From Lingula anatina (Eukaryota > Animalia > Brachiopoda): a stretch of DNA of 64,000 nt. The notes below the pieces were generated by a model that did not search any database, was not told the DNA's origin, and worked only from the letters and a program-made list of their open reading frames with translations. The stretch covers positions 52,864,788-52,928,787 of the forward strand of contig CM120640.1 of the NCBI GenBank assembly GCA_051362555.1. The letters run 5' to 3'. Shown piece after piece: positions 14,672 to 63,882 of this stretch; within the stretch, counting starts at the first letter, position 1, and every line of letters begins with the position of its first letter. The translations under genes and the position numbers were made by a program.

Positions 14672-17600
14672 ATGACGACGTCACAAACAGCGTGGTCAAT
14701 CGTGCTCCGATTATTTTTACTACTAACTGTAGCCTCTCTACTCATACCATCCGCCCGAGGATACGTTCTGCCAAATTTAGACACAGTCCCAGAGGAATCG
14801 ATGCTTCCGGAGGTTCAAGACAGTGACTACAAAGCCAACAGAGTAGCCGACAAAATAGTACAAGTTTTATTAGAATCCAGAAAGGTCCACCACAGGGTTA
14901 AAAGACCGAGTAAGCACCATTCCCCTTCATCTCGTTATCAATTTAAACCGAGTAAGTACCCCTCCCTGTTAACCAGTTACTAACCTGGTGTGTGGTATCA
15001 CTGATCATTTACTGCGGCAACCACTTCCTAGAGTCGTCAGCAGCAAATTGAATATTTCACGTGTTATTGTTGAAATTGTTTTTTTTTCTTTATAGAACGA
15101 TGCTCAGCAGTTGACTTCGTTCAAATCTGCGCTAAAATTATATTGACAAGGTTAGCATCGATGCATTATTGTCAGCTTGTGTCTGCCTACATGTGACAAA
15201 AGTTGAGAACAATCATCGTTTCTTTTTTATTCAAAGAAAAAAGTAATGCAATTTTCAGATGCCTTGCTGACAGTAAATCATTTGTGATGAGGATTGTTTA
15301 TAATCCTACTTATCATACCTTTTATCCTTCCTCCTTCTTTCCATCCATGCCTCCTTACAGTAGCTTTCAACAGTAAAAGAATTTTTATTTTCAAAGCAAA
15401 TCTAATATTTTTTATGGTACACAATCTAATTATATAACATATTAAGTGTGTGTTTAATTGTATGACGTATTTAATCCATCCACCCGTGTGCTTGTGGTAT
15501 TGTATCCTCCATTTTTCGTTTTTATATTAATCTTGTTTCATTTTTCGTTATACTATATTGGATGTTTACGGTGAAATGCAAATTCTATAACAAACCCCTA
15601 CATTTATGGTACTTATAACATTTACCCCGTACGCATAATAACCTTGGACTTTAACATAAATTATGGAAACATGAAAATGAAAATAGCAGGTCAAGCTGGC
15701 AAATGAACTTGTCAAGTTTGCCCGTATGATAATTATAACTTAATGAGCGTAATACGTGTGGATATAATGGCAATGAAATATACGTTAATTATACGCCTAT
15801 TCGTTACTAAGCGTCTAAGTGCATAGAACGTACTGACACTGGGGCTCGCATGTCAGTGATGTCCGAGTACGTGATTGTCTAAACCGTATAAGTTGACCTT
15901 AGCGGTGACATCCGAGAACATGGTACAGAAAGGCACTAACTATGGTGTCACCCCCGTGTCCTCTTCATGTCGGACACGGATCTCTGATATCAGCACATAA
16001 CTAAAGCACCTGGCAATGTGGTATTCAATACCCCTGCATCATTTTGTCACTCTTATTGTCCTTAATTTCTTTTCATAAACCAACGTAGTCTGAATGGGTG
16101 CAGACCGTGGCTTGCACCTAGTCTTGCTTTGGCTTGCGGTCCACCCCCGACCACGTCCTGACTCCGGAACTGAGTAGATATTGTGCAACAATGTCGCCGA
16201 TTCTTGTTTACTCTCCATGAAAAATTGTGTTTTGGCTATTTCTGTTAATTTGTTCTTAACTTCGCGTTCAAATGCCATTCACATTCAGCCTATTGACATA
16301 ATCGATTGCCTTCCGGTTATATCTCGCTTTTGGAGACTTGTTCCTTCATACGGAATGATATATCACTTTGTAATTATAGACAACCGTGTACATAAGTTGC
16401 AATACAAAATGTCATGACATACTCATTGTGTGCAAAATTTATTAGCCTTTCTTTTATCCATTCAAAGTCATTGAGAAGATCCTGTAAAACACAACTGTAC
16501 AAAGAAACGCCTTTTTTTATAAGTCGATTGGTAACTATTCTTGCCGGTAGCGTTGCTTTATGTCTTTTATCGTCATTTGCCTTGAAGGGTCTCTATCGTT
16601 TATCATGACAACAATGTTTTTTAAGAAAACAATGTCGAAGGTTTGGAACTTGACTTAAAAGGGAGGCGTCTCTTGTGTTAAATAATACTTGTGAAGATTA
16701 GGTCATAACCTGATCACGACAAAGTATGCCTTTGAAACTCTAAAGGCCATAAAGTATCTTGATCTTATACAGTACCCTAGTATACTCTTTATGAATCAGA
16801 TTGATCTCCACGCTCATTTAAAGAAGCCAATTGGGAACAGTGTAAACGATTTTCTTTGAGTAAGCTATTAAATTTCAAAAATAACATACCTAAGCCGTAA
16901 CAAACCAGTGAGCATGTTTTCGTCGATACTTAATTAACTCCGACTTTTGCGTAGAATTGTTCTAACTTATCGATCCAAAGTTTCAAATTTTGTTTACTTA
17001 TCTATTAACACTTTATTCTCGGGCGCTATAGCTAATTTACGCTAGATTACCTCTTCGTTAACTATTACGAATTTCAAAGGAGCACCTTTTCCATAGATGT
17101 GTTTTCTTCGCTTACTAATTAGTTTCCTTCCTTGTGTGTTATGGGTGTCCTAGTACGTTGCCTTTGCAGTTGCATGTTTCCAATAGTGTTTATTGGTTTA
17201 AGGCTGACATATAGATATTTTTGGTGACTTTTAACTCCAGTAACCGACCCACCTGTCCCCCCATTGTGTCTTGCTCAAAGATTCTCACCTTCCGTGCTCT
17301 TAATGAAATATAAGACGTTTGAGAAGTCGATACTGTGTCATTAGGAACATATAGTGAACGCCATTGCGAGTAGGTTGTCATTAAGTAGACTTAATTATAA
17401 AAGACGCAAATCTTTGAAGTGTATTCAAAGGATTGTGCAGGATTTGAACACACTTCTTTGAACTGCAATACTTTTTTAGACTTGCAAAAGTTCTTTACTG
17501 GAAGGTCAGATTTTTTTCTAAAACTTAACGTGTACTTGTTGGTTTTTCATTTAATCTCACAGTTTATGTTCACTTAAGTGTGACGTCACAGTGGTCAGAT

Positions 17601-24357: not shown

Positions 24358-27300
24358 GGGGGGAGGATTTGTCCCAATATGAAATTGTAAAAAGTGACTG
24401 AGTCAGATCCTTCAAATTGGGCCATTAAAAAGCTTTAAAATACCGCCAACAAACTCTTTGTATAGATTAAACTTAAAGAGATATTTTAGATTGCCTCCAA
24501 ATGAAAATTTATCCGAAAAATAGTAGGTTGTCTTAGATAAATTTACTTGTCTGGTTTAGGCTCCTAAGCGTGAATAAAAAAGGAAATGTCAAAAGAATTA
24601 ACTCCATTACCGTTATTTCAATTTCATTCTTAGAGGAATTTCCCAACAGACCTTTTCCGCTTTCACGACGGAGTTTTAAACTATACTTTAGAAAATCCAG
24701 CATGCCTGCAAGGGCACATACAGATATTAAACTCCAGCATAAAATCACAAGAGATTAAATTATTTAAGAAACATGATAAGAGAGTGAAAAAAGACTGGAT
24801 TAGGACGTGATTTAAGGTAATACAGATCACTGCACACCTATTAATACCCCTTGGGTTCCCGGCACAGACACGGAGCAGATGCTCAATAGTTCTTAAAAGA
24901 TGTAGCTTCTCCCAAAGGATTGTCAATAAAATCAAACGAAATGCAATTGAATTCTCAAGAGTTTTTAATCGTTTTCTAAAATAACCGTATTCTTCGGTGC
25001 ATAAACATGTTAAAATCTACTTTGTGATGACTTAATAATGATATTATATCCGGTTTATGCTATTTGTTTCGTCTGCGTCACCAGAATCGTGCCTATCAGT
25101 CTCGGACAAAATTTCCGTTTCTATTCTTATTCGTTAAAAATGTATGAAGTATTGATCTGTTCAGCATTTTTTGGGTTGCGTTGAAAAGCATTCAGGTAGA
25201 TTCCATTTAATTTCATTTCTCTCGTACTACAAGGGGAAGTTGTACTAATAAATGCATCTGCCAGCGGTATTGAAATGTATATGTACCGATCGAATTACTT
25301 CATGATAGTCTATTAACCCAATCAGTTTAGTTCACGCAGAGTCCATTAGTCGGTATATTGGCACAAACAGGTGGGTTTTGCAAACTTTTGCTTATGGATT
25401 TATCTAAACATAATGACTAATGAATCGATGCTCAGGTGCGCTAGTCATTAACATACTGTCCCCTGTTACGTCGATTAGTGTTTCATTGGTTTGTATAAAT
25501 CTGACAGGCGACACTAGTGATCTACTGGTAACGTGATTGTGCAGCAGACGACAAGTCAATAAGTGAACTTTTGCGCAAAGGATTCCGCTTTCAGATAAAT
25601 TGGTATGTATTTTTCGTATATTTGACTTTAGAAAAGGACGAATCGGTAACTTTTGTTAATTTGTATCAATCAAATAGGCTTCATACAAAAAGGTATGTCC
25701 ACTGTTTTCTGTATGAATACCATTAGTTGAGAATAGGTGTTATTAAAATAACATTTCCTATCATAAAGCTAGATTTATATAATAATTATTCAAAGAATAA
25801 CATGACTTTAACATTCCTTCTGCCTTTGGGTGCTAGGGTGTTCATCTGACACAACTTCAAGGCAAAAATAATTCAGTTAAGAAAGTTTGACAAGTTGTTT
25901 CTAATTCGTGTTACCTATAACAAATCTTGGCCAGTCACAGGTATTTCCATGTTTCGTTAGCTTAAAAAGCTATAACTGTATACATAACGGAGCCATAGAA
26001 AGATAGAAAACAGTATTCTACTGCCGAAGTCGTGACCGCATGGATTAAATGACCCAGTGCCAGATGATCTGATTTGATTATTTAACGATGCCTTCTTAGC
26101 GTGATCATTTGCAGATGGTATCAGATATGGGTAGTCAAACGAGAACCCATTAGACAACTTCAGAATCACGCAAGACAAGACGGTAATCTCAGTTGATAAG
26201 ATATGTATTCTCCTAACTCAAGGTCTGCTATAGATTTCTGGCGTCTGTCAAGTCTCTTTTGTTTTGTGTGTATTTTATTTATTTACATAGCGTGCTGGTG
26301 AAAGGTACATAGACGTATTTAGATTCATCATTAGCAACTGAACTCGTACATCTACTGACAATGTGCATATAAAGTATAAGGAGTATGTGTCACATACATT
26401 AAGACAGGAAAATACTTAAAACAGCGTTTAGAAATTTTGAAAAACTCGATTTTACCAAGTGTAGTTACAAAGTTATTGACGCATACTTGCGAATTGTCAA
26501 GTAATTTCGCTTCGCACATAAATCAATCAATTCTTTAATACCTTTTAAGGTGGACTGTTTTTTTTTTTTTTTTTTTTGGGGGGGGGCTGCTTGTTTGTTT
26601 ACCATGTTTCAAATCGCAGAGCTGTTTGACTTCCAATGCTCTGTGTTTGTTTCAAATGACAGAAAAATGCTCAAAATTAATCAAACGTTTATATAATACA
26701 AGTTACCTACAGTGTATCAATGTAAAGTGATTATGAGTTACTAAGCTTTAATATCATAGGGCGATATGTATAATAAACCCCATGGATTTTCTTAATTAAC
26801 GCCCGCGCCTTTAATAAACGGTGTGAAAATAAGTCACCTCAGTGCAGGAGTGAATCTCCAGAGACGCTTCCTGTAAACATGCCCTGCAATAAGAAAAAGG
26901 AGAGACATTTTGAAACTGCGTATTCTGTCGATGTCATTTATCGATAGTTTCTAGATCTACTAAAATCATAAAATAAATGCGTGGGTAGGTCTGGTTTTGG
27001 TGGAAAGGAATCAAACGATGATCTGTAAGTCATTGACACGGAAAGTAGCATTATCAGTAAATTATAGAAAAGCATTATAGAGAAGCAATTAATGGACAAA
27101 TGGTTACACGACAAGGAAATGATCCAATTACTAGTATAAAAGCACATGAACTTGCAAAGAAGAGAAGTAAATAGTATGACCATAGTCTGTGGAATGTGTA
27201 CTGAGTGCACTTATGAGAAGGGGAATTCGTGCAACCATAACACTACCATTTATCTTGTGTAATAACAAGATATTTTTCGAAAAAAAAAATGTAGAAAAAT

Positions 27301-31318: not shown

Positions 31319-31904
31319 TGCCCCTATTTCACACAGACCACGAATCCCACGAAAGGCCATGAATTGACAAATTTCACGATTCGTGGTTGAATCGTAATCA
31401 GGTCGTGAAGTTCTTAACAGATTCGTATATATTCGTAGTCAGTTCTTGCACTTTTTGATCAACATGAATTGGTAGCAAAAACTTTGATGCCCCTATTTCA
31501 CACAGACCACGAATCCCACGAATCGCCAGGAATTGAAAATTTCAGGATTCGTGGTTGAATCGTAATCAGGTCGTGAAGTTCTTAACAGATTCGTATATAA
31601 TCGTAGTCAGTTCTTGCAATTCTTGATCAATCGGGAATTCGTGGCAAAATTTTTGAGCTGTTCAAAGTTCTGGCCACGAACTCCTGATTCCAAAAAATCG
31701 CAGTGAATTTCTGGACAATATTCTTGCGATTCCAGCCGAATCCCACGAATATTCGTAACACTATCGCACCTGTATCGTAACTGAATCGTAGAGCGCGTCG
31801 AATTAGACCAGAAAATTGGCAAAATCTCACGAATCCTCACGAATCCTAAAATTTGTCAATTCCTGGCGATTCGTGGGATTCGTGGTCTGTGTGAAATAGG
31901 GGCC
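31319..31904. mobile_element. PIF/Harbinger-like MITE with TAA target-site duplication and a tandemly duplicated left end
   Basis: gcccctatttcacacagaccacgaatcccacgaa occurs at 31320 and again at 31489 (period 169), and its reverse complement ends at 31903. TAA flanks both sides (31316-31318 and 31905-31907). cacgaat/attcgtg subrepeats occur internally. Confidence 0.8.
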
Positions 31905-33106
31905 TAAGCAAACAATGCATCAAATTAGTGGAATAGAAAGCTCATTAAGGCGGGTCCTTCAAATTTGATGTCCAATAGTTTCCCTTTTTCCGTGTTTCGA
32001 TATTTAGGTATGCGGCAGTGTAGATCATAGTTAACTCATGACATTACTAATGTATTTTGTTACCAAAAAGTCTTGTTGAAGTATTATAGGACAATTTAAG
32101 CCCACATGCCAGATTTAAGTACACTAGCAGCCTACGTGTAAATGTGATTTAGTAACCTACGTGCGGCTTGTAAAGTGCGCTAAACTTATTTAAAGGTAAA
32201 GATGGGAACTTGTTGACGAGAAATGCTTTATAAAAAGCAATTTCCGGGAGTTTTTTGGTACTTTTTTCCCCTAAAATCCATTTCCAAATTCACAATTTTA
32301 TGCCTTGATTTTTTTCTGTGGTTTGCATTAAGATCATCAATTGATAATGATCGAGGCGACCACAACCTGCCACTAAGTGCCATTTCCTGCAATTCGTGAA
32401 ACGCTTATATATACATGTATATACTGTATATATTTATCAATCCATCTATCAAAAGCACATCAATTGTTTATATGGTTTTTATGCGTATGTTTGTGCTCCC
32501 CTTTTTTCTTGCGACTTTTTCTATATTGTTCAAATTTCCGCTTGACATCTGAAGGACTTCATTTTCCGACCTACGAAGGTGGATGCAGTTGGTTCCTTAA
32601 AAGTTATGTAGCAAGGGAACAATTTAAAATAATCAGTTCTTCAAGACCATAATGACAGTAATGCCTTGACCCAAAAAATTGAAAGTCAAATAATTAGAAT
32701 ATTGTACAAGGAGCAGGAAAAACACTTAATTATTTAAATCATTATTTAATGTAAGCTAAAGGAATCATACTTTTTCTCAAAGGCTAAATATAAGATTTAT
32801 CGATAATGATCCCTAGAGGTCTCTCGAAATTTGATCGTCTAAAGAAACACTCCCTTACAGTATTTGCTTCCCTGCATAATTACCCCATAGTTCAGTTACA
32901 GGTAACCACAAATACAATTTTAACGTGACGTGACGCGAGATAAAGCAAGGACGCGTGGGAAGCTTTCTTTACATTTCTTTTTTATGTTCCGTCTTCTTTA
33001 GCTGATCGGTCTTATAAGGGGTGAGGTTGGAACGCAGTCTGGAGAGGCTACATTTGACTTAACAATTTTTATTAAAGGAACCTGCTTATTTTACAGCACA
33101 TTGAAA

Positions 33107-33600
33107 ATGAAGAAACCAATGGTAGTTCAAGTATACGCATCATTATTTTGCGTACTCCTCATATGTTTGACAGTTACAGAAGCATACTCATATATAAATG
33201 GGTAAGTTTTGCTACAGGATTTTTGTAAGTTGTATAGTTTATTTACCCTAAAGCGGTTCCTGTATCGCCTTTTCTCTACCGAAATACAAGAAAATGAAAG
33301 TTAAGATATATGATCATTTTCTCATTAAGTAAAACGGTTAACCCCTAAAAACATCAGCAATGTATGTTTGCCTTTTTTCGATTTAGATGAAACCGTAGCA
33401 TAAGATAGATAAATTTATAGGCCATTTTGCACTTGTGCATTCTTATGTTTTCAGCTTAGAAGATCAGGTCACGGATTTAGATAAAGAAGTAGATGTACTA
33501 TCAAATTTGGTCAGGTATCTAAAATCAAGAACGACTAACGGGTAAGAATGATGAACTTATTAGGCTTAATTTTGAAGTCTAACATATTGTATGAATGGAA

Positions 33601-33654
<54 letters not shown>

Positions 33655-36600
33655 TTGCTTGATGGGTATCTAAACCTCATATGTCAGACATATGTTTGAT
33701 AACAAGAACAAGAAGAGTTCAAAACAAAACAAAATGTCATAAAAATAATGAATTAAATACCCTGTTTAGAAGTGGCTAGTTTAGTCTTTGAAGGTTGCAT
33801 TTACCGTTACTATTCCTAAAGGGAAATGGAAGGCTATGCGTATGAGCAATTCAGCCTCTTAAAATCTAGAACCCAAACCCACAACTTTTAAGTCAATGGC
33901 CATTACTCAGCAATTATGAACGAGCATGTAATCATGAAAAAGTGATTTAAAAACATGACAGTGTAAGAAATGACAGTCTCGAGCTCACTAAGGATACACT
34001 AGATATCGCATGGGTGTATTTGTCAATTGCATATGTCATCAATTCAGGTAAGACAACTGTGGATGGACCAGGGAGGTTATTAAAGATCACACACACCCCT
34101 ACCGGATTCAGGAACGGCTATTATGTTCCTTGTAAGCGTGTTTTATTTGCCTGGCTCATTCAGATGTCACAGATTGCACTTACATACATCATTTGCCAAC
34201 AACTAATGTTTGTTTATTTTGCCTCAAAGTCTACCGACTTGACACATGATGACTGCTAATCGTTCAATAGCCCATCGATATGAGTTACGTCCATTCGGGG
34301 GGATTTACAACATGTTTTATTTGCTTAAGAAGCCATTAATGTCAGTTAATACATAGACGTCACCATTATCATTTAAAGATGTGCCTAATGGCCGATAAGG
34401 CACCCAATGAAGTGGCTTAATGCCATTGTTTTCATTATTGCAGTGTTAAAGCTATGAGTAGTGACATTTCCCTCAGCTGTCTTCACATTGTGCATTTCTA
34501 CTGATTTTGTACAGCTGGTTATTTGCATAGACGAAGAACGGTATGACTAATTCAAAAATTGGTGGGCGTTCACGTTTACACGTGCTTAAATCAGTTAAGA
34601 TAGCGACCAATTAAAGATGTTTTCAGGATAAAAATAGATGCTGCATTTTTAAAATAGACTGTCATAAAGTTGAGGGACAGTGAAGCATAAAAAATTGTAC
34701 TCGTGTCTGTATGTTTGTGTTTGTGGTGTTGTTAAATATTACTGACTTCAATAGCAAGATATTTATTGCAAAGTTAATCATGTTTTTGACCCTTAGTATT
34801 GGGGTAAAATTTCAATTTCACTTATTACATAACATCTTTGCAATTACAATCATCACTAATCACTTGTCATTTTACATGTGATAAATTATTTTTCAGACAC
34901 ATTCGAAAGATCTTGAAAGTAACGATGATCACTTACTATATCAAAGATTGTAAACTCTTAAAGATCCATTAAAAAGAATTTAGAATTATCAGTCAATTGT
35001 TCATCATTGTCTTTTATAGTCGCAAACGGCAGATAGACGCAGGCTTTGGCTCGAGAAACACGTTGGCACAGGATATTAGCAGACTAGTGCTAGGTAAGCA
35101 TATACGTATATGTAAATGTAAATTGAAAGCACGCGATAACTGCATCGGTAGATGACAGCTTCGTATGTTACAAGACTTGTATATTCATTAAAACGTTTCT
35201 CCAGGAAGTGATTGTGTTTTGAAAGACAATCCCATTCTAGGCTGAATAATAACATTAAAATGCACCTCGGCCGCGCCCCGTGGCTGTCTATTGGGTTCCC
35301 AAGTCTGGTTTTACAAACCTCAAATCAATGGCACCAGCATTCCGTTTCAAAACTGCCAATTCTACTGTAGACGCTTCAAAGAGGCGAATGAGCAATATAA
35401 TTCAGAGTTACTCTTTGAGTTGTGAAGCGAAGTACCAACAAAAACTGATTCTTTTTCACTGCAAAAATTCACACAAACTTAATCTCTACTGGGAATAATT
35501 AACCGACGGTATGAGTCGCTCTATGGCATCACTGTTATTTCCATACAAATGTATTATTTATAAAGTCTTTGAAATGTATGTTGCATCGATTTTCATGCCA
35601 ATCAAACGTTCGTCTTTTATAAGAAATTAGAAAATTTTGTGTTCATGAAATATTTGACAATCAGTGCCAGAAAAAAATTGACTTCTCAAACAGATAGCCC
35701 TACATTTTCTGGTTACCACACTTCACGTTCAAAAGTGAATTCTCAGCTATCAAAATGTATATGATGTTCAAAAACCCAATTCAGTATGTATGTATGTATG
35801 TAATACCATAATGTGACCCTAGCATTATTTTGAGCCTAAAAGCATTATAATTGGGATTTTGTATGTACATAATTGGTAAATGGACTAAGTAGCTTATGGA
35901 CATTTGCGTAAAATTTTTATATGACGGATGGAAAAATAATGTTCACTAAAAGCAAAATCTTTGATGCAGAATAATATTCTTGCGACCCCAATTACGCAGC
36001 GCAATAAAGTCATTATTTTTCGATGTTGCCTTTTGCGAGGGTGGGGGGTGCAGGGGGTGGAGGGTGTCACTTTCCTCCCTTTTCCTCATCTAGCATCCGT
36101 ACCATGCCAACAACCATTTGACCATTCCTTCACCAGAACACACGTTCTCGAAAAAGTTTTCTCGCATCACATATCCTCAAATACTGGACCTAATTAACCT
36201 CAAGAAAACACATTTACAAAACCTGTTGAATGTTTTTCGACAATTTGGTTCGTACCAAGTATCAAATATATTTGCATATCAAACATGGAGACGAAAAATT
36301 AGTATTTTAACATTTTTATGCACATTTATGTGTTCGGGCGCCTGTATTTCAAAACTGCCTTATCAATATCGCTTGCAATGAGGTATTTTTTATTTTATTA
36401 GATCATAAAATCACATCGGTGTTATGGGCACGATTTACGTATTGTTGTTGGTGCTGAAACGTTCGAATACCAGCGCGAAATAACTTATGTGAAATCGTTT
36501 TAATCCATTTACTGAAATGAACAATGCTTCCCACGCATTTTACGAAAGTCTTTAAAAGGAACCAATCACAGGTTTATATATTATTAGGGATTTTTTCCAC

Positions 36601-36829
36601 GGGTGGAATAATAGGTTGGCTAGCACAAGCCGCAAGAGCCACTGTTCGACATTTCTGTGCATAACTGTAGCATGTGACTGTAGTCCAATCATTGAAGCAT
36701 CCATATACCAAATATTTATTCTTTTTAAAGAAAATTTTCTCACTTTTAGCCCAACACAAAGCCCAGAGCTACAACAGTCCCGGAAGAAGACGAAGGAGCA
36801 TCAATACAAATAGTCAGCTGAGGCACTGA
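33107..36829 (+). CDS. DH31: DH31-type (Cys-free calcitonin-family) neuropeptide precursor; 111 aa; coding exons 33107-33201, 33455-33541, 35020-35093, 36750-36829
   Basis: The spliced product is MKKPMVVQVYASLFCVLLICLTVTEAYSYINGLEDQVTDLDKEVDVLSNLVRYLKSRTTNG-RKR-QIDAGFGSRNTLAQDISRLVLAQHKAQSYNSP-GRRRR-SINTNSQLRH*. All three introns are GTAAG...AG with matching phases (2,2,1). The 32-aa peptide ends in Pro-Gly-basic and carries the xIDAG(Y/F)GSR motif of annelid-type DH31. Confidence 0.85.
33604..33650. repeat. (TC)n microsatellite in a DH31 intron
   Basis: Uninterrupted dinucleotide run. Confidence 0.9.
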
Positions 36830-37596
36830 GTGCCTGGAAAAAGATCCATCGTGCACATTTAAGACTGGTCATTAACACGGACATTATAACATTATATTAC
36901 AAGAGAAAAAACGTATTGCATAATGCTTAAATATCATATGAATATACATATTACCAAGCTTTGAACTCCACGGATGTCAGTTGTTTCCACCATGGACATG
37001 TAAAACTTTATTAACAAAGTTCTGAATTTAACATAAACGTCTTATATGAATGCATCTTTTTACTATTACAATGAATACGTGCCGTGCAACATATCATCAA
37101 TATAAATCTAATAATGTCGTAAATTTTGGCACTGAGAGGTATTAAATCACCCTTCTCTCACTATATACATGTAAAGAATATGTGAGTTCAAATTTGTCCA
37201 TCTCAAACATGTTCCTGAAAAAGAAATGCTTTTAAAAATATAATGTAGGCTATTTCATATTGCGGAACTTACAATTCCGATACCAACTCTTAAAGATTAA
37301 CCAGATAGTCATTAATCAGCTCTGATACCGGGTCACAATGGGACACTACACGTCCTTTGAGCTGCATCAGAAAAAAATTTGGTCTGCCAACAACAACGCA
37401 ATAAAATCAAGGACCCGGTACACTGGGTTATTTATTATTATTATTATTCTATTTATTATTTTATATTATTTTATATATTTATTTTATATTTGTATTTACC
37501 TATTTGATAAAAGTATTTGCAAAAGAAATGGGAAAGTATATATCTACGTCGTAGCAACATTAATTTTTGGGAAATCTTGACTGATCGAAAATGAAC

Positions 37597-40988: not shown

Positions 40989-41542
40989 CAGGCCTTCCCA
41001 ACTACCAGACTCGGCACCTAAGGATCCTGAATTAACCGGTATATCATCGGACCACGCTACCCGTTTTCAAGGTGTGTGTCAGATCGCATTTCGGAGTATC
41101 ATACCCCAGAACAAATTTTGTAGCACGACTGCGGGCTCATCCACGCTCGGCTGAACAACCTTAAACTGTACTCTAACTTTAGAGTACTCTATTTTATTGT
41201 CTCTATGGGGATATATGGGGACTTTATGACATTCGGTTTGAATGTTTTAACCACTTTTGATAGGGCTTTTTTGCATTGTATTAGATTAATGTGGCAGTCT
41301 AAGGTTCAGCTAGGTGGCTTTCAAATTTATGCATCCGGTTTTAAAATCATATAGCGATTTTACGACAATCGTTTACTATCCAATCAAGGTGACAGCCGAG
41401 CATGCCAGGGCTCATCCTGTCGGTGTTCTGGCTGATACTCCGAAATGCGATCTGACACACACCTTGAAAACGGGTAGTGTGGTCCGATATACCGGTTAAT
41501 TCAGGATCCTTAGGTGCCGAGTCTGGTAGTTGGGTAGGCCTG
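40989..41542. mobile_element. Foldback MITE, 554 bp, with about 110-bp TIRs
   Basis: caggccttcccaactaccagactcggcacctaaggatcctgaattaaccggtatatc...gatcgcatttcggagtatca is near-perfectly inverted at about 41432-41542. tatat flanks both ends. Confidence 0.85.
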
Positions 41543-42579: not shown

Positions 42580-42647
42580 TATAAAAGAGAGGGTATGCTC
42601 GATCGTTACTGGTCCTCTGAGCAATAAACCAACCAAGAACTAGAAAG
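42580..42647 (+). promoter_or_regulatory. TATA box and short non-coding first exon of the calcitonin-type gene
   Basis: TATAAAA at 42580-42586, donor AAG|GTGAGG after 42647, and acceptor tttag| at 43004, 23 nt before the ATG at 43028. Confidence 0.55.
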
Positions 42648-43027: not shown

Positions 43028-45126
43028 ATGTTGCCAGAATGGAGAAGTTTAGCTCACTGGGGTATGACTATTGTATTTTTCCATATCCTTGTTCTGAATC
43101 TAACAGGTGCCTCAAAACTGGAAGCCCTCAGGTGAGTTGTGTCATTTTAAAAGTCAGGATACATTAGAAAACTAATTACAGAAAATGTTGTGAACAGTTA
43201 CATACATTCCAGAGTAAGCAGAACTCGCAGAAAGAAAATCAGGTATTATTGCAAAACGCTGGGACGAAAGGTTATTTTGTTTAAATGACGTTTTCTTGGT
43301 CAAATGAACAAAAAATTGTAAATGAAAACATATATTTTGTGTCCTTTAGTGTTGATAAATGAGCTTGCCAGTGTCATGAAGGACCGCAGGTCTGGAAGTC
43401 TATTTATGATGTTGTCGGTCGACTGCAGTCAGTATGATGATGATGATGATTAGTATTGATACATTCATTGATTTGGGCCTTTGGAAAATTGTCTGTTTTA
43501 CATTCTTTAGAAGTATTAGAAACCTAAAACGCCAACGCAGCCAATTTTCTGAAATGAAGCGAGTATTAGAAGAAATCGACGCCGATTTATTGAAGCAACA
43601 GTAAGTATATCGAAACGATTTATTTTTGTGACACTCTTTGGTAGGGCCTATGTAACAATGAGCGCTTCTTCAGCGCATTGTTTACCCTTGGGCTTTTCTG
43701 CTGTTTTCATTTCTTCAAATAATTGCCCATACAATGTATTTCATATGAATCATATGGTGTCGTAATTCATTTTTTTGGTATAAATTTGAGTTTCAAGGTT
43801 GAAATTCACACGAATATTTGATAATAATATAGAACATTACGGATTACAGAAGAAAATGTCTTCTCGTATGGTATTTGTAAAGGTTTGAGTACAGCACAGC
43901 GTGTATATTTTCAGGAAACGGACATGTGCACTGAACGGGGGCATGAGCACTTTCTGTTTTGGAGAAAACATCCATGATAAAATGAACGCATATGAGTATT
44001 TGGGTAGCCACAAGAGTCCTGGCAGAAGAACCATCAGATCCACAGGAGATCTTCATGCTTGGCGGTAAGTTTTATATTTGGATTTCATCTGTTTTCTATA
44101 GGCTACCATACAAGTGTTTGCTCAAGTGTTGACTTACTGAAAGAATGGAAACCCCAACCAAGCCCTCTAAATGTGCCATTTGGATATGCAGCTTTTTTCA
44201 AGCAGTAATTTTATGTATATGGCTTTTCTTCATTTATTAAACGGAGACAATTTAAAAAAAAATTTTTTTAATACTGTAGACATTTCTTTTTATAGATTTG
44301 CAATTGAATTAGTTCTCACTTAAGGTATACAATATAGCACTTTCCGCACTCTTTTTAATCACTTTAGCACCACCGATGACGCATTTGCTGCAAATGCCTT
44401 GCGAAAAAATCTTAACAAAATTCTTTTCACGTCATTAATTGCTAGATGAACATAAGCATGTGTTAACATGGCGCAAAAACTTTTTTCTGGAAATATCAGA
44501 TCACAGATTACTGCAACTCAAGGACCATACAATGTGTTTGACCAGACAATCAACTTGTCATTTGAGTGCAAATTTGTTATGAAATGAAGTTGATATGGTG
44601 TCTACCTTTCACATTCCAATGTTGTGGGTTCACAAAATAGCTGTCTCGCGTTCTCAGAAACTGCACTGTAATGAAGTTAAGTTTGACGTTGTCCGTTGCA
44701 TGGCAAGATTACTTTTCCCGTGATAAGATTACTTAATGATTTTAATAAATACAACGCATCGCTGGTTCAACAGCTTTCATGATCATCGATCATTTCAGAA
44801 CCACACAATAGCGTTTTAAAGGAAGAAGGCCTACTTCTTAACAGGAAAATATCACGCTCCTGCCTCTTATATTTTGGCTTTGATAAATGATATTTGATAT
44901 TTTTTTCCCTCTGTTGAAGGCGAAAGTCGAATTTGCAAGATTTAGATAATATAACATAAAAGTTTACATATATATATATAGCATTGGTAAAAGCAACAAT
45001 CAAACACCCATTGTCAGAGACATCACATTGAGTCTTTATGACATCGCTTAACAACCAAAATAAACAAACAAGATGCAATGAAACCGGTCGGGGCAAAATA
45101 ACTGCTCTTCTTTATGTCTTTTTATC

Positions 45127-45157
<31 letters not shown>

Positions 45158-47153
45158 TAACAAATTAATATTATAATGTTCACTCAGATGAATATATGTT
45201 ATGCCATATCCTCGTCATTTAAGGCTTATCTATTTAGATTTACCATCGAGCCTTTGTCTTCCAATTTGATTTGGCACCAAAAAGACAAGATCATACTTAT
45301 AATATACGATAAATTCCTAACGTCTTCATCGAACAAATACATAAGAGTGGTTGTAGCGCATGCAGATCACGCTTATATCAAATGGCACCTTTCAAATTTA
45401 GTTAATTTCAGCAAGTCTGGTTAATTTTTTTTTTTTTTTTTTTTTTTGGTTTTCAGAAAACGAACCTGCAGCGTGAATGGAGGCATGAACCCATTTTGCC
45501 TCATCTCCGACCTTGACGCCAAGCTTAACGCCCAAGAGAAACTTGGCAGCAAATTCGGACCTGGTAAAAAACGTGACAGTAAACCGAAATCAAGGTAATA
45601 ACACAGTCATTTTCATGAGATCTCTAAATTATTTAAAGCATAGCTCTAGTCATCTGAACATAGGGTCTTAGCCTAATCTGACCGATTACTGACAGACAAC
45701 GATATTTTACAGCGGTATAAATCGAGAGAGTATTATCTTATAAAGCTTAACTTCCATATTGAAAACTTCTTAGTTTTAAATTATAAGTGTTAATATTCCT
45801 GCATTGAGACTTTCAAGTCGATATTGAAACTGTATTTTTCCACAGGAAAAGGCGTTCCATTTACTGGACTGGACCATGTCCATCAGGAACGGGCACCTGC
45901 AGTTATCCACTGGTCCCCGCCAGCCAACCGTCCCCGTCCATAGGGAATACTGGCAACATGTATGGAGTAAACACTGGCTTAGGTAAACCCAATTTTGGAG
46001 GGTTTGGTGAACCATTTAAGAGAGCCCAATCAAACAGTAACTTTTATCTTACTGATGAAAACCCCTACGCCTTCTACAAGAGAGGCAATCCAGCTGACAT
46101 GGACAGGTTCTACTTCAATGATGACGAGTCCATGTCCAACTTTTACAAGAGAGATGGCGAAGATGGAGAATTTGATATGTTTGTTCAGGGAGAAGACGTC
46201 GGTCTCGGAGAGGATTCCGAAAGGTATTTTTTCTTCACTTTTACAAATTTTCTATCGTTTTCCTTTCATACATGTAAATCTTACCATTATCTGAGCACTG
46301 TAAATGTTAAAACGATTTTTTTTGCTATAGTATCATTTTTAGTACATGTCAACCAGTTGAAATTGATAGTTGACATTGTGACATAATTACCAAAAACCCT
46401 CTTTACATTATTTCAGCGTTCTTCGCAGTATAGCGAGAAAGAGAAGTGGAATCTCGTCCTTGAAGCGTCTGCTAAGCAACTTGGATGCACGCCTTCATAA
46501 ACAACAGTAAGTTGCAACCATTTAGCTTTTAATAGTTAGCGAGATTTCTTATTTAGACAGTTAAAGAAGCAAAAATAATGAAAAAAATGTGTTCAATAAG
46601 AGCAATGCAAAAATTCATGAATAAGTGTTATATCCCTTTTCAATCATATGCTTTATAAGATCAAGGTACAGCTTCAAAAGTTACACTGATGTCTCCAAAA
46701 ATAAAATCACCATTAATAAAAAGAAAACTTCATGCCTCACTTTATCATGTTACCGACTCCAGGAAACGCGCCTGTCTCATGAATCTGGGCCACTCTTGTG
46801 ACGTGGAGAGTGCAGCGGCAGCAGCCGACACTTGGAAGTACCTGAACTCCGTCCACAGCCCAGGAAGGCGGCGCCGGGACACAAGGGCGGCCAATAAAGA
46901 TCGCAACACCGACGAAGCTGACGATAAAAGGGAGGTAACAGATGACAACTCAGCCGACGAAGAGAAGCGCGAAGAGGAGACGGCAGCTTCTGATGAATCC
47001 AAGGCGGACAAACGCGAAGAGGGTGTCAAACAAAAAGGTGGAAGCTTCTACAGTTTTTATCCATCCCGACGTAGTGAGGACTGGCAAAGTTCTGACGGTG
47101 ACGACGCTTCCCGGTTTTATTCCAAGTTTTACAAACTGGTTCCATTCTATTAA
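43028..47153 (+). CDS. Calcitonin-type neuropeptide polyprotein, about 446 aa; coding exons 43028-43131, 43511-43600, 43915-44064, 45457-45594, 45846-46223, 46417-46506, 46763-47153
   Basis: The first exon encodes the signal peptide MLPEWRSLAHWGMTIVFFHILVLNLTGA. Six GT-AG introns, all phase 2, give one open frame. It contains KR-TCALNGGMSTFCFGENIHDKMNAYEYLGSHKSP-GRR, KR-TCSVNGGMNPFCLISDLDAKLNAQEKLGSKFGP-GKKR and KR-ACLMNLGHSCDVESAAAAADTWKYLNSVHSP-GRRRR. An N-terminal Cys pair plus C-terminal Pro-amide in 31-33 aa is the calcitonin signature. Confidence 0.88.
43915..44064 (+). CDS. Exon encoding calcitonin-like peptide 1 (33 aa, C-x9-C, Pro-amide)
   Basis: ttttcag|G AAA CGG ACA TGT ... AGT CCT GGC AGA AGA ... 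TGG CG|gtaagt. The + strand frame is absent from the ORF track. Confidence 0.88.
45457..45594 (+). CDS. Exon encoding calcitonin-like peptide 2 (33 aa, C-x9-C, Pro-amide)
   Basis: Poly-T tract, then ttttcag|A AAA CGA ACC TGC ... GGA CCT GGT AAA AAA CGT ... TCA AG|gtaata. 16/33 residues are identical to peptide 1. Confidence 0.88.
46763..47153 (+). CDS. Terminal exon encoding calcitonin-like peptide 3 (31 aa, C-x7-C, Pro-amide), acidic KR-delimited spacers and an FY-rich tail
   Basis: ctccag|G AAA CGC GCC TGT within ORF 46689..47153. AATAAA lies at 47553-47558. Confidence 0.88.
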
Positions 47154-48391: not shown

Positions 48392-49888
48392 TTACCCATC
48401 TTTTTCTCGCAGTTCTGCAAAATACAACTCAGGAATTTGTCCCTCTTCAACATCTGTTGAATTGGTACTTCTTGAAGTGCTTGCAAATTCAAAGGATGCA
48501 TTCCCAGATTTGACAAATTTGAGGCCATCATAGCCCTTCCTTGTTGGTAATCCGTTTATTACCACACTAAGTATATACCATACATTAGCCTCTAACTCCA
48601 CCCCAGCCATTCCCATATCAAACTGATATATATCACTCTTCATCTTCACCTTGCATATATCTTGTCGATCATAAAGACAAAGTCCATTCAAATCTGATAT
48701 TTGAAGTTTCACATTATATTCGGTGGACAAGCCTTTTTCTTCAGGCCCATATAAACCAACCCCATAGAGCAATATATTTGTATCACAGCAAAACACTATT
48801 GCATCAGTTTCCCTACCATTAACCACCCATCCTGATTCTGAATTTCTAAACCGTTTACATTTCTGCAGTTTGGAGTTTTCCTGCTTAGGCAAGCACCTCC
48901 TGCTGGTTGGAAAAGGGACATTAACTCGATTGCCAGTAATCAAATAATCAAGAACTTCCTTTGATTCTTCTTCCCGGAGGATTCCCTTTTGAACCACTTT
49001 GGAGTTGAAAAACTGTACACTTAGTAATGGAAAACGTATAAGATACAAACAATTCCCTAGTACCAATCTAAAATTAGTTCCAATGAGCTCTAAATCCTGT
49101 CTTTTGCATTCTGATTCTGCCCAATGGCAGCATGCTTCATATACACCTGACTCTGGACTACGCAGAGTATCTCGACTTAAAATAAGGGTCAAAGTTTCTT
49201 GCTTGATATGTAAAAATGACTCACACTTCAACACTGTTTCTGTATTGATATCTATATACTGCAGGCACTTGTCTAGGAGATCAGCCTCTCCAAATGACAA
49301 ACTTTGTTCCAGTATTGTGCAGACATTTTCATCGTCCATGCTCTCTTGCAAGTAACCCTGACAATGGCGAATCAGTCCTGATAAGAGGTACTTCTTGGCT
49401 GCATATAATACCGCCATTACATTGAGAGGGGTAATATTGCACTCTTCAAAATAAATATACCTGAAAATGGAAAGGGCAAGTTATTTCTTGCTGCAAAGTG
49501 CCTTTGCTCCCTGATGTGATTGTCCTTTACATATATTACTGGCATTTTCACTGTGGTCAGATTTAGATGAAAATATTTCATGGAAACCAGACCATTACCC
49601 TGAACTGTTTTCATTGCATTGCTTGTGCACTAATGGAAATGTGTTGTACCTGTGTTTTGTATGGCAAACAAAACAGAGAAAATACATTACCTGAGTACAA
49701 CCATAAAGCTTTCCTTATCTAGTTCTGGGACAACAATTTCTGGTTGCTTTTCTGCCAGTGTTCCATAGAACATTGTAAAGAACACGGAACTTCTACTGAC
49801 CAGCATATACTTGTGTGCTGGAATAGGCTCCTGCTCCTCTCCCACTATAAAACTCACATCAGAAGCAATGCCCTTCTCCAACATGTAC
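48392..49888 (-). CDS. BTB/POZ-BACK-PHR domain protein (BTBD1/2/3/6-like Cullin-3 adaptor); exons 49888-49691 and 49460-48392; 5' exon(s) not resolved
   Basis: BTB motifs SDVSFIVGEEQEPIPAHKYMLVSRSSVFFTMFYG and LRYIY...NVMAVLYAAKKY are joined across a phase-2 GT-AG intron. BACK motifs WAESEC and LYLIRFP follow. The PHR domain runs from CKRF..SGW..DAIVF..LYGVGLYG to STNSTDVEEGQIPELYF. Confidence 0.92.
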
Positions 49889-51894
49889 CTGAATAACACA
49901 TAAAAATATTTATAATGGTGTAAAGTAAATTAGAAATTAAGTGTTATAACTGGATTTAAAAGAAATGGTCCAGTGGTAAAATGAATATCATGGGAGAGCA
50001 TTTCAAGTTTTTTAAGGACAATAACTTACAGGAATTCTATACTGACCTGATCAGATCAGAAAATGTCCTAAAGTCATATTTTTATAACTAAATATCCTAC
50101 CAAATTTACTTACTTTTCCCAATTCAGACTCTAAAATAGTAAAACCCCTCAAATAAAAGCACCTGATGTTGACATTTCCTTATGAAATTCCAGGAAGACA
50201 TGAAGGTCCAAATGAACCCTGATTCATTTAAAATGAAGTTTTCTTAACATTACAAAACATGAATGTCAAGTGAAGGGATGGGCTGAGCCATATTTCACAA
50301 GTAGACCATTTGTCAAGTAAATCCTGCATGGAATAACTTAACAAACAAAATGAATGTTTTTTACATGACTGTTGTTTACTAGTGAGCAAATACCTAAGCT
50401 TAGCAAGGTGATTGTTGCAGTGCGCAAGGGTAAAATGCTCTGATTAATTAATAAAAATATACTATATTTGTTTGAAAATACCCTTAAGGCATTTTAATGT
50501 CTAAAACCTAGCAAAGCTACCTGTCTGTAACTATTCAAACCTTAAAAATGATAAACTAATCAAATTAAAGTACCTGATGTTGATATTCCTTTCTTAAAAT
50601 AATATTATAATTAATTTTGAACAAATTAAATTAATTAGAATAAGTACAAAACATAAGGGACACTGGTCAAGCACTGATTTGTGAGTAGGAAAAGATTGAA
50701 TGTATAGAATTAGACTTGGCACAAAAACCCTGCAGAGGATACCTCTAAACATGATTAATTAGCTATAGCTGATATTCATTGAATCATATTGGTCAAAGCT
50801 GAGCAAACATTAGACTATTATATCACTGGCCAATGCTTAATCACTGCTTTTCCTTTTGAATTTGGATAAACTAAACAATAACAGAGCAGAACATACAAGT
50901 CCACCAATTCAAAATTGATTGGATTTTGGAAGTCAAAAGCCACTTTCAACCGATAAAATAGCCAGGATACAAAGGCATAAACATTTCATTTCTGAAGTGT
51001 TATGCAAGATCCCTGTAGTAAATATTTCAGGGAATATAAGTGCAAGCTTGGGTTTGTCAAGTCCAACTATCTTCAAATATTTTAGTTTGTGGGCCATCTT
51101 ACTTTATGCTTATACATCTGTACAACTTTTCCCCACTTCCAATTAGCCAACACGGTTAATAAGCTTTAAGATAAGGAACAATAACTCTCTTTTTTCTAAG
51201 GCCACACTTTTTTATTTTTATGGATGACATCCTCTGAGTACCCCAAAATCGGTGCGAGAGGGCGAAAAAAAAAAAAAACAGTCCAAAAAAAAAAAACTGC
51301 TTAAGTAAAGGAATGCTGTCAGTACACAGCTGGAAACACAAATTTAACCACAGAAACACGTATCAAACTAACAATATGTCTTTATCCATGCTCTCAAAAT
51401 ATTAAAGCATTGTGAATACGTCGTAGAAATGTAAAAAAAGTCATGAATTGATATACTTCATATTACCAAATCTATTTAAGGTTATTTCATGCATTCATTT
51501 GGTATAGCAATCAATAAAACAAATATCAATCAAACAGTGTGTCTTTATTTGTATTCTCAGAATATTAAAACATTTTGAACACTTCACAGAAATGTTTAAA
51601 AAATGATGCAAAGAATGCTTAATACTACCAAATCTATTAAAGGTCATTTCAGACGATGCCATTTTGTCAACTTCAACTCACACGAAGCAGCTAAACTGTC
51701 AGGTGGCCTGTCCGACCTTCAGCCCACCAAATACCTCGACGCCCTTGTTGACCCTTTTTTCGCTACAGAAAACCTGGTATTAATGTGCTGCTTTATACAG
51801 AATGTCACAGAAATGTTTCGGCCGCCGCCAGCCTTTCGCACAATTGTAAAAAGGTGATATCTCCATGCCTTATATCAATGGCATACCAATCCAA

Positions 51895-53892: not shown

Positions 53893-56800
53893 ATGGCTCG
53901 ATCGATAACACCCAGCCAGCAAAAGCTGGCGGAAAAGCTAACGATCCTTAATGACAGGGGGATCGGGATGCTTACCCGGATTTACAACATAAAAAAGGTA
54001 AGTATGTGTGCTCTCTGACTCACTTTTCAGGTGCCAATGCAATGATGGGAATGCCAAGTTCTGCCAACTTTGCTGAAGTTGACATGTTATTGTTACTTTA
54101 TACTACTATTCGTTATCACATTTGCCAAGAACATAGATATCACTTTATAATCGCAAAGTGTGCCAAAGATTTCATGGAAAATCTGAAATTTAATTGCTTT
54201 CCGCCTTCAGTTTGTGCACTTCGTTTGAGCATAAATCATTATTATTTTTTCCCCATTTGGTCATTGATCTTTTTAAAGTTATATTATAACAGGGGGATTT
54301 GAAACTCATAATTTTTAGTCCAGATGATGGCCATTTTCACTTCCACTGCAATTCCTTTCAGTTTTACCTTACCTCCCCCTCCAATGCTCCAATGAACGTT
54401 ACTGAAAAGTTTCTTTTCTTTTGATGTTAACTGAGATTAGTTTTGAGAAAATGGTGTTAACCTATTTTTCAATTGGCCTTCTAATACAGCTTTACAAAAC
54501 CCTTGTTTTTAATGATTTTACTGATTGTATATAAATCACAAATTTGAGCATGTGTACTGTGGTAGTTTTTATATTATAGACCCTAGCACACTCAGTAAGT
54601 TTTTAAGTACAAAAATAAATGTTATAAAGATGGGGAACTTTGGACTATATTTTATGAATAAGTTGTCAGATCAACCCTAGATATTTTCTGTTAAGCCTAG
54701 GTTAATGAAATAGATGGTCTTGTAGCATGGATCGTTAAATATGGTGCTGTATGCCAAATCTTAATGCCTTAAATTCAATTTTGGTTTGAAATCTCCAGTG
54801 AATGCTCCTATTTAATGAATGTGTTTTGTTATTTTGGCCTATCATTTATTATATAACACATTATTATATCCCAAGACCAGCATGGTGAGTTTAATTTTGA
54901 TGTAAAGCTGTGTGTGCTTAAAATAGTATTGATTTACTTTTGGTTATGCCCTGTTATTTATTTATTTATTTATTTATTTTTTAATATAAATGTTGATTTT
55001 ATTTGCAGACATTTGTCAATAATTCTTGAACTCAGTGAAAATGTAATTTTGCCTCATTGCTTTTTTCCTATAATCTAATTTCTTTCAAAATGTTTAAGAT
55101 TTAAAGAAGGGTTGACATAGAGGAATTGCAATGTTATGTTTGTGCCAGAATGAAATAAAAAAACAGACATAAGCACTAAACAAGCAATTTTCTTCTTTTC
55201 CAAATGTAATGTATCAGATTTCAGTAAGTTAAAGTTGCTGGCAAAACTGTATAATGTTGTTTAGTTAATGTTTCCTATCATTCCTCTCATTTTTTCTTTA
55301 TACCTTTGCATATACTTAGATGTGATTGTTTGAAAAGGCAATCTCCACATGTTTATTTTCTGATAGAAATCCTATTAGACCTTAAAGAATATACTTGTAG
55401 TTGTCATTGTCCATAGATGTGCTTAATTAGAATGTGCTTATTTAGTTGAAATATATAGTTACCCATTAGCAATGATTTATGTGGATTTCATAATAAAGAC
55501 GTTGATAGCCTGCTTTATAATGTCTCCCCTAAGGTGTAGTCTTCAACAGTCCATCTTTAAAATTGGTACTAGTATGGGTGTCAAGGGAAATGTTTCATAT
55601 TCTGCTCTTATCTGGGAAAAGTCTTCCTTGCGGCAATTTCTTTATGTCATCTATGTATTGTCACTCCTTGTAAAGTTAAACTAATACATGTAGTATTGTG
55701 TTGTTCTGTAATAGTCTGACAAACTTATTAGAATGAGGATGGGTAAAACAGATGTGTTGAGTTTGCTGAATATAATAAAATGGTAAAAACTTTTTTGATT
55801 TGCTAGATGCAATACATATAAGAAAATTGACTTGTAATTTATCTGCCTGTTTATATTTAACAGTTAGTGCAAATCTTGATATTGTCACATGTCAGTTTTC
55901 TTTATAGTTTGAAAAACATTAAAAGTCAATAAAAGTATTAAAGCAGGTATTTTAGAAATCTTGCTAGGCTGATGAAATCAAAGTCTGTTCCTTTAATTTT
56001 ACAGATGTTGAGTAATCCAGAGTCCAAGCCATCATTTCTCACAGACAAAGCATTGGAGGCTGCCATCAAAACAGTCTCTAGGAAGTTCCCATTGCTAGAT
56101 ACAAAAAGCTTTGGTGTAAGTTGGATTCTGTGCAACTTTGAACTTTTAAATACTAAGAGCTTTTTAGAAATATTAACTTAAGTTGCAAAGTTCTCAGAGA
56201 TTAAGAAATTGAACAGGTGGCTGAAATACCTCTTTTTTATGGAGTGTAAATATTGAAAAGCTAAGTATGATTTTTGTCACCAATTTCTGAGAGGGGCTGT
56301 TCCTTCATTATAGAACCTGAACTCACATAGTTTGCCAAATGCTTACCAAATGATAACATTTTAACCTTCATAACAAAACAAAATAATGCCATTAATCCTC
56401 ATCAAGGGAGCTACTTCCATAATTATTTATACAGCTATAATATACACAGTGACTATTTTAAACACAATTTTTATTGAGGAGAAACAGTTTTTCTTTCCAC
56501 ACTTTAAATGGTTACCATTCCATTTTTTCAGAACCAAGTGGCTCCAGTGAGTCATTTTAAGACAGAGATCATCAGGTCACTGTCCTTGTACTATTACACA
56601 TTTGTGGACATACTGGACTTCAGGGTGAGTTATAATGTTAGATAAAGGTTTATTACCTAATTTACCTTTATGCCTGTGAGTGTGAAAATGAATATAATCA
56701 ATATTTAAAAATTTTTACCTTTTCTCTTGTAACAATTGAAGCATTTTATAGTCCTGTGGAATTTGTTTTATTTGTTTATAAGATGGATGACCTATATGTT

Positions 56801-62800: not shown

Positions 62801-63031
62801 CTTTAAAAAGAAAATATAAATAGCAAAATGATCATATATCCTTTTAAAAAATTCAAAAATTTAACATTTAAAATATAATTTGAAATAAGCGCCACTCCAT
62901 TGGCACAACCAGCATCCAGTACGCCAACTGGTTCCTGAAGGAAATGTCTGAGGAGGTGAACCAGATCATCACCTTTATATGTGAGGAACAGTGCATGCTA
63001 GCTGACAAGGTAAGCAGTGATATTTTTATTG

Positions 63032-63062
<31 letters not shown>

Positions 63063-63882
63063 GGGGGGGGTGCATATCTTCTTTCTAAGTGCAAGCAGTA
63101 TTGGTAGCACGGACACTGAAGTTTATCTGTCTTGCTTAAATTGTCTCTCAAATTTAATGGCTCCATATGTTGCATTAGCCAGTTGAAGCTCTAAATGCTC
63201 AAAAGATGTAAAGATGTTTGGATACAGACCATTAGTTGTGCTGGAGTTTTTACAAGATACCAGAATAATATATAGTGAAATTATTTGTGTTTCAGCTTCT
63301 TCCCAAGAATTGTGCTGCCCAGCTGGCCCAGGTTTACCAGAACAAGAAGAGGAGAGACAAGAAGAAGCAGGCAGGACAGGAGATGGTCAAACCAGGAACT
63401 GAAAGCTACAGAAGGAATAGGGAAGATTTTACAAGGTCTGTTTTATCAAGTCTGGTGCTTAAACCCCAGTCATACATACATCAGTTGAACTTACCTTCAG
63501 TATGTACAGCTGATCTCCCCTGAAAAAAACTAGAATTGTAAGGTGTGTATAGAAGTGTGTGAATCTGTTGAATGGAATTCCCCTTTTATTGTTGAAATTT
63601 CTGAATCATTTTAGAAGAGTTGAATTCATTAATGAAAATGTCAATTGTTGAAAAGTATTTTACTTTTCAAAGTTAAACCAGAATTTATTATTTTGCCACA
63701 ATGAATTTTGATGTTTTCATGTATGACTAAATTACCGATTTGTTTTTTAGAATGGACAAGCTCCACATGGCCCTGACAGAGTTGTGCTATGCTCTTAACT
63801 ACTGCAGTATTATACAAGTATGGGAACATGGCTTTGTACCCAGAGAGTTCTTTATCCAACATCTAGAGACCAGATTTAATAA
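53893..63882 (+). CDS. NCKAP1: Nck-associated protein 1 (Nap1/Hem/Kette, WAVE complex subunit), 5' part; 21 coding exons; continues beyond the window
   Basis: It starts [35 protein letters not shown], with later motifs [67 protein letters not shown] and [12 protein letters not shown]. Exons: 53893-53997, 56005-56115, 56532-56624, 56848-56904, 57381-57526, 57686-57776, 58019-58156, 58489-58537, 58752-58905, 59265-59321, 59682-59778, 60584-60708, 60914-60954, 61142-61233, 61483-61564, 61717-61775, 62000-62145, 62406-62538, 62890-63009, 63296-63435, 63751-63882. Confidence 0.96.
60010..60560. repeat. Probable interspersed repeat inserted in an NCKAP1 intron
   Basis: A GC-richer head (cagctccgc..ggctc twice) and recurrent tgacct(t)/aggtca motifs differ from the neighbouring AT-rich introns. 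The boundaries are uncertain. Confidence 0.4.

Follow-up and report, generated by a model that had tools for sequence, protein, structure and literature searches.

The brachiopod Lingula anatina carries a true DH31 gene of four coding exons, and this gene lies head to tail with a calcitonin gene. Both are encoded on the same strand of the 64,000-nucleotide stretch of DNA that we analysed (hereafter the window). DH31 lies directly upstream, with 6,198 nt between its stop codon and the calcitonin start codon at position 43028. We are confident of the overall reading: a spliced DH31 neuropeptide-precursor gene, a predicted 32-residue, cysteine-free, amidated peptide that is likely to act through a class B receptor of the calcitonin/DH31 type, and a place upstream of calcitonin that is likely to be a relic of tandem duplication. 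The gene and its peptide are genuine, of an ordinary kind, and have been published before. The head-to-tail linkage and an old intron are modest additions to a known gene, and probably unreported ones.

The four coding exons (Table 1) join through GT-AG introns in a spliced translation of the window. The introns measure 253, 1,478 and 1,656 bp and fall in phases 2, 2 and 1; the joined open reading frame of 336 nt comprises 111 codons and a stop. Intron 3 interrupts the mature peptide itself, cutting the alanine codon of residue 22. The first-pass annotation had proposed exactly this four-exon model, with a phase-1 intron splitting the mature peptide, and the spliced translation reproduced both. 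It had also described the gene as missed by the track of open reading frames. That is true of a scan faced with exons of only 74–95 nt, but the gene itself is annotated in RefSeq.

The spliced translation is identical to the L. anatina RefSeq protein XP_013397000.1 (P0006, LOC106163849), whose RefSeq name is 'uncharacterized'. The frame of exon 3, used as a query in word-indexed protein searches, returned this protein and no other. In the available part of the supplement to Thiel et al. (2021; PMC8557429), the same protein is filed as DH31, both as transcriptome contig comp150897 and by its XP accession; a comparison by eye shows the supplement entry and our translation to be the same. The available text of that paper describes neither a gene structure nor a genomic neighbour for it. 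Because the transcriptome-contig protein equals the spliced translation, it spans all three junctions, and the exon model is therefore not a product of chance. The match to XP_013397000.1 and to the supplement entry bears out the initial DH31 call.

The transcript also extends upstream. P0007, the second member of the same protein cluster, is 14 residues longer, and the addition maps to a 5' exon 7.5 kb upstream. This exon has its GT donor at 25603, followed by a 7.5-kb intron with its acceptor at 33096. Raw reads were searched for exons 3 and 4 in four (X1, X2, X4 and X7) of nine runs chosen by species label. There were none in X1, X2 and X4 and three in X7, too thin to count either way: one fits exon 3 partly, and two cover the final exon and the 3' UTR (bins 36785–37034). 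At the listing threshold, no joint at the 35093/36750 junction was found in the four runs (three reads in total).

Table 1. Positions of DH31 and calcitonin gene features, numbered from the first letter of the window
Feature	Position	Strand	Remarks
Non-coding 5' exon of DH31, 3' end	25571..25602	+	14 extra N-terminal residues of P0007 reproduced by joining to 33097; exon start undefined
DH31 coding exon 1	33107..33201	+	predicted signal peptide; phase-2 donor
DH31 coding exon 2	33455..33541	+	spacer (pro) region; phase-2 donor
DH31 coding exon 3	35020..35093	+	RKR site 35021–35029; mature residues 1–21 from 35030; phase-1 donor
DH31 intron 3	35094..36749	+	1,656 bp, phase 1, within mature peptide; position common to annelid-type DH31 genes
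DH31 coding exon 4	36750..36829	+	remaining mature peptide; Pro codon 36779–36781; Gly that donates the amide, then RRRR, a short tail and the stop codon
Putative polyadenylation signals: ATTAAA (37141), AATAAA (37400)	37141..37405	+	inferred from sequence
TATA box (42580) and likely first exon (non-coding) of calcitonin gene	42580..42647	+	inferred from sequence only
Calcitonin precursor gene	43028..47153	+	446 residues; seven coding exons separated by six phase-2 GT-AG introns
Calcitonin coding exons	43028–43131, 43511–43600, 43915–44064, 45457–45594, 45846–46223, 46417–46506, 46763–47153	+	

The predicted mature peptide has 32 residues, where DH31s have about 31, and no cysteine. It begins with a glutamine after RKR and ends with a proline before G-RRRR, so that pyroglutamate formation and amidation are both predicted. 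It is the one peptide in the 111-residue precursor, as is usual for DH31 precursors, which carry a single peptide near the C-terminus. At the other end of the precursor, hydropathy peaks at 3.2 over residues 13–23, and the putative signal peptide is judged by hydropathy only. By general prohormone biology, the signal peptide would be removed, a convertase would cut at RKR and at G-RRRR, a carboxypeptidase would trim the product, PAM would amidate the C-terminal proline, and the N-terminal glutamine would cyclise. Mass spectrometry in the available text of PMC8557429 covers the nemertean Lineus longissimus only. The N-terminal cysteine pair of the Cys-type calcitonins is absent from 33107–36829 and present in all three calcitonins of the neighbouring gene; its absence is given as a defining feature of DH31 in the parts of PMC3890597 and PMC6002491 available to us.

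Is the peptide a DH31, or a calcitonin without its cysteines? With the precursor as query, five non-self proteins among 1.84 billion representatives matched at E < 0.001. The best two, P0008 and P0009 (E 5e-9 and 1e-4), are DH31-type precursors. P0010–P0012 are long proteins that match the spacer alone, and were set aside as probable coiled-coil noise. The nearest Atlas clusters are those of arthropod DH31 (PF27927, DH2-like), which fill the three top places (scores 0.93–0.94); three of the ten best family matches share the DH31 family, a result flagged as weak. Structure comparison in the Atlas was uninformative (model pLDDT 0.59, every TM < 0.5). Our local copy of Pfam, which may not include PF27927, gave no DH31 or calcitonin match for any of eight queries, P0008 and P0009 among them, and returned only unrelated, sub-threshold matches.

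In sequence, the mature peptide resembles other DH31s far more than it does the calcitonins beside it. Aligned with the peptides of P0008 and P0009, it scores z 10.4 and 11.6 (0 of 5,000 shuffles in each case), and 12 of its 32 residues are identical in P0009. Against the three neighbouring calcitonins, z is 2.4, 3.5 and -0.6 (5,000 shuffles). Judged by this closeness, the Lingula peptide is an old DH31 orthologue and not a recent cysteine-free copy of calcitonin.

In the available sequences, the DH31s of annelids and nemerteans (Capitella ELU08670.1, Platynereis and the nemertean entries of the PMC8557429 supplement) open with the same D-[AG]-G-[FY]-G-S-R start as the Lingula peptide. They also share with it the lack of cysteine, the Pro-Gly-basic end and the single C-terminal peptide. 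The middle of the Lingula peptide, however, has diverged from theirs. The beetle DH31 gene has a similar plan of signal exon, conserved spacer exon and DH31 exon (PMC6585902, available text). Unlike the Lingula gene, the basic beetle gene holds DH31 in one coding exon, and that text describes no intron within the mature peptide.

Two of the intron positions in the Lingula gene recur elsewhere. A scan of metagenome contigs yielded 32 loci from 283 pattern matches; we call them annelid-type for the likeness of their peptides to the Capitella DH31 entry in the available part of the PMC8557429 supplement. Of the 22 loci that contain the first half, 21 have an AG at the Lingula offset before KR, together with a GT that follows the codon of residue 21 and one further base. 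For the second half, the matching AG is present in 19 of 20. The background rates for such matches are 5.5% and 6%. Ten loci hold both halves, nine with introns of 722–3,202 bp and one (L001) without. A phase-2 donor lies at the place that matches the end of exon 2 in four of the seven annelid-type loci examined; the other three lack the motif that was searched for. The loci repeat one another (the two halves yield 15 and 13 different exon sequences, and 18 of 22 share one peptide), and so represent few independent lineages. Since Lingula and the annelid-type loci have these positions in common, introns 2 and 3 are older than the split between brachiopods and the animals from which the loci come. 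As DH31 occupies one exon in the basic beetle gene, intron 3 could have been gained in lophotrochozoans or lost in beetles. The intron-free stretch of L001 (237–356), the sole such case among the ten, perhaps stems from a transcript or reflects loss of the intron.

The neighbouring gene encodes three calcitonins (33, 33 and 31 residues), each with a cysteine pair and a Pro-Gly-dibasic end. Its translation differs by three residues from the displayed part of the Lingula calcitonin in the PMC8557429 supplement, compared by eye. Like its paralogue DH31, it has a Pro-amide end and, immediately ahead of the dibasic site, an intron in phase 2. Unlike DH31, it has the N-terminal cysteine pair, three peptide copies and peptides uninterrupted by introns. 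Exons 2 and 6 are both 90-nt spacers and are paralogous (z 10.5), which gives the precursor the look of two fused modules, one with two NGGM-type peptides and the other with an NLGH-type peptide. By eye, a similar layout can be seen in the calcitonin entries of another brachiopod and of a nemertean in the available part of the PMC8557429 supplement. Exon 5 opens with KRR and a cysteine pair, has no Pro-Gly-basic end at calcitonin spacing, contains several KR-flanked acidic stretches and has no Pfam match; it is possibly a decayed fourth calcitonin.

We propose that the protostome duplication that produced the two families probably left the DH31–calcitonin linkage as a relic, because DH31 is an old orthologue and tandem events leave head-to-tail pairs. 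The first-pass annotation had described the genes as direct neighbours about 6.2 kb apart and had suggested a tandem origin; the spacing is confirmed, and a tandem event best explains why the genes adjoin. In the published model, as given in the available text of PMC3890597 and PMC6002491, a duplication in the protostome stem was followed by loss of the cysteines from DH31. The case for that split has so far rested on how the sequences cluster and how the genes are distributed among species (PMC3890597, same text). Both lineages are found in annelids, nemerteans, brachiopods and chitons (PMC8557429, available text). A comparison of mollusc calcitonin neighbourhoods with that of fly DH31 found no genes in common, according to the accessible part of PMC7200681. 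Neither the linkage nor the intron within the mature peptide was reported in the literature that we searched, including the accessible parts of PMC7200681, PMC12638048 and PMC4237046, and their novelty is provisional.

Exon architecture alone is weak support for a common origin. Both genes have a signal exon, a spacer exon and a peptide exon with phase-2 introns. However, no sequence similarity is detectable between the two genes in their signal and spacer exons (z 0.5–0.7), the intron before KR lies one codon further upstream in DH31 than in calcitonin, and the calcitonin exons have no counterpart of intron 3.

A true DH31 gene might have come to lie beside calcitonin by later rearrangement or by chance. 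Against this stand the common strand of the two genes and their shared three-part exon plan. With a gene count of about 30,000, the chance of finding these two paralogues next to each other is about 1 in 10,000. In its favour are the lack of similarity between the genes at the DNA level (best blastn E 0.2) and the fact that the linkage is known from one assembly of one species.

The annelid-type loci bear on the same explanation. A calcitonin-exon pattern, widened so that it recovered three of three calcitonin exons in the window (a narrower version recovered one of three), found no calcitonin exon in the 32 loci: it gave four matches, none of them calcitonin-like. A tblastn search of the same loci for calcitonin exons gave nothing under E 0.3 among the matches listed. 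Only L004 extends more than 7 kb downstream of DH31 (8.9 kb). The absence of a calcitonin exon from that flank is a point for later rearrangement or chance, but in Lingula the calcitonin peptide exons begin 7.1 to 9.9 kb past the DH31 stop, against a flank of at most 8.9 kb in the loci. On balance we regard later rearrangement or chance as improbable, and retain a tandem duplication as the source of the linkage.

Could the two genes instead form one transcription unit, with the first two coding exons of DH31 (signal and spacer) joined by splicing to calcitonin exons, as in vertebrate calcitonin/CGRP? Introns 1 and 2 of DH31 and all six calcitonin introns are in phase 2, so such cross-splicing would stay in frame. 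Yet each gene has its own signal exon, spacer exon and 5' exon, and the published transcripts are separate (PMC8557429 supplement, available part). The polyadenylation signals after the DH31 stop and the TATA box before calcitonin, as read from the DNA, likewise point to two units. DH31 and calcitonin thus appear to be separate transcription units, and we consider a single one very unlikely.

It is more doubtful still that the adjacency is an artefact of assembly. Microsatellites and an inverted-repeat element lie between the genes; these, and the reliance on a single assembly, could arouse suspicion. No convincing open reading frame was seen in that stretch. But positions 25000–48000 contain no N, and no long repeat is common to both genes that could have drawn them together. 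Least probable of all is that the gene is a young, brachiopod-specific calcitonin copy without cysteines that merely resembles DH31: its adjacency to calcitonin, a weak likeness to calcitonin 2 (z 3.5, reached in 19 of 5,000 shuffles) and the cysteine-free calcitonin copies of beetles (PMC6585902, available text) would suit such an origin, but z exceeds 10 to other DH31s, and two intron positions are common to annelid-type DH31, one of them missing from the calcitonin exons, which refutes it unless those positions arose twice.

A bolder version of the tandem-duplication reading can be framed. Lingula would retain an intact ancestral protostome array, in which DH31 is followed by a two-module calcitonin gene (spacer plus peptide exons, twice). 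The linkage would then be an unreported trace of the stem-protostome tandem duplication, and should recur in other phyla where both have survived. We hold this to be evenly balanced between right and wrong.

The window contains several further features. MITE-like elements lie between the genes (40989–41542) and in the 5' intron of DH31 (31320–31903), with long terminal inverted repeats that are 98% and 92% complementary, respectively. A gene for a BTB/BACK/PHR protein (RefSeq name BTBD6; 48392–49929, minus strand) converges on the calcitonin gene and offers a synteny marker. Its BTB-domain reading frame (48395–49480, minus strand) is 99% identical to a L. anatina RefSeq protein, and the next of five matches is 36% identical, which assigns the window to a brachiopod and rules out a mollusc. 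On the plus strand at 14672–14951, an exon with a good acceptor, a signal-peptide-like start and a KR site precedes the 5' exon of DH31 by 10 kb. It resembles the beginning of a further secreted precursor; we could not extend it into a gene, and it has no Pfam match and no entry in the available part of the PMC8557429 supplement. A frame at about 53900–54000 (plus strand) has what we take to be a resemblance to the N-terminus of NCKAP1/Hem proteins, and there are more probable exons near 62900–63500.

Calcitonin/DH31 class B receptors couple to Gs/cAMP. Platynereis DH31 activates an L-DCc1 receptor (PMC8557429, available text). By analogy with the Platynereis pairing, Lingula DH31 may act on a receptor of the L-DCc1 group, and the three neighbouring calcitonins would act on L-DCc2.

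The presence of DH31 together with calcitonin had struck the first-pass annotation as surprising. DH31 is indeed patchy in molluscs, where a chiton is the only species with DH31 among those surveyed (PMC6425005, available text). The host here, however, is the brachiopod L. anatina, for which the pair had already been reported (PMC8557429, available part). The Lingula pair refines a known story and is not a new system. Nevertheless, a head-to-tail pair with dated introns would add genomic evidence on how the calcitonin/DH31 duplication happened. Preserved linkage would also give a place in which to seek remnants of DH31 in the molluscs that have lost it. Finally, both peptides and both receptor groups are found in L. 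anatina, and such a combination is the setting that PMC8557429, in its available text, names as needed for settling which ligand pairs with which receptor.
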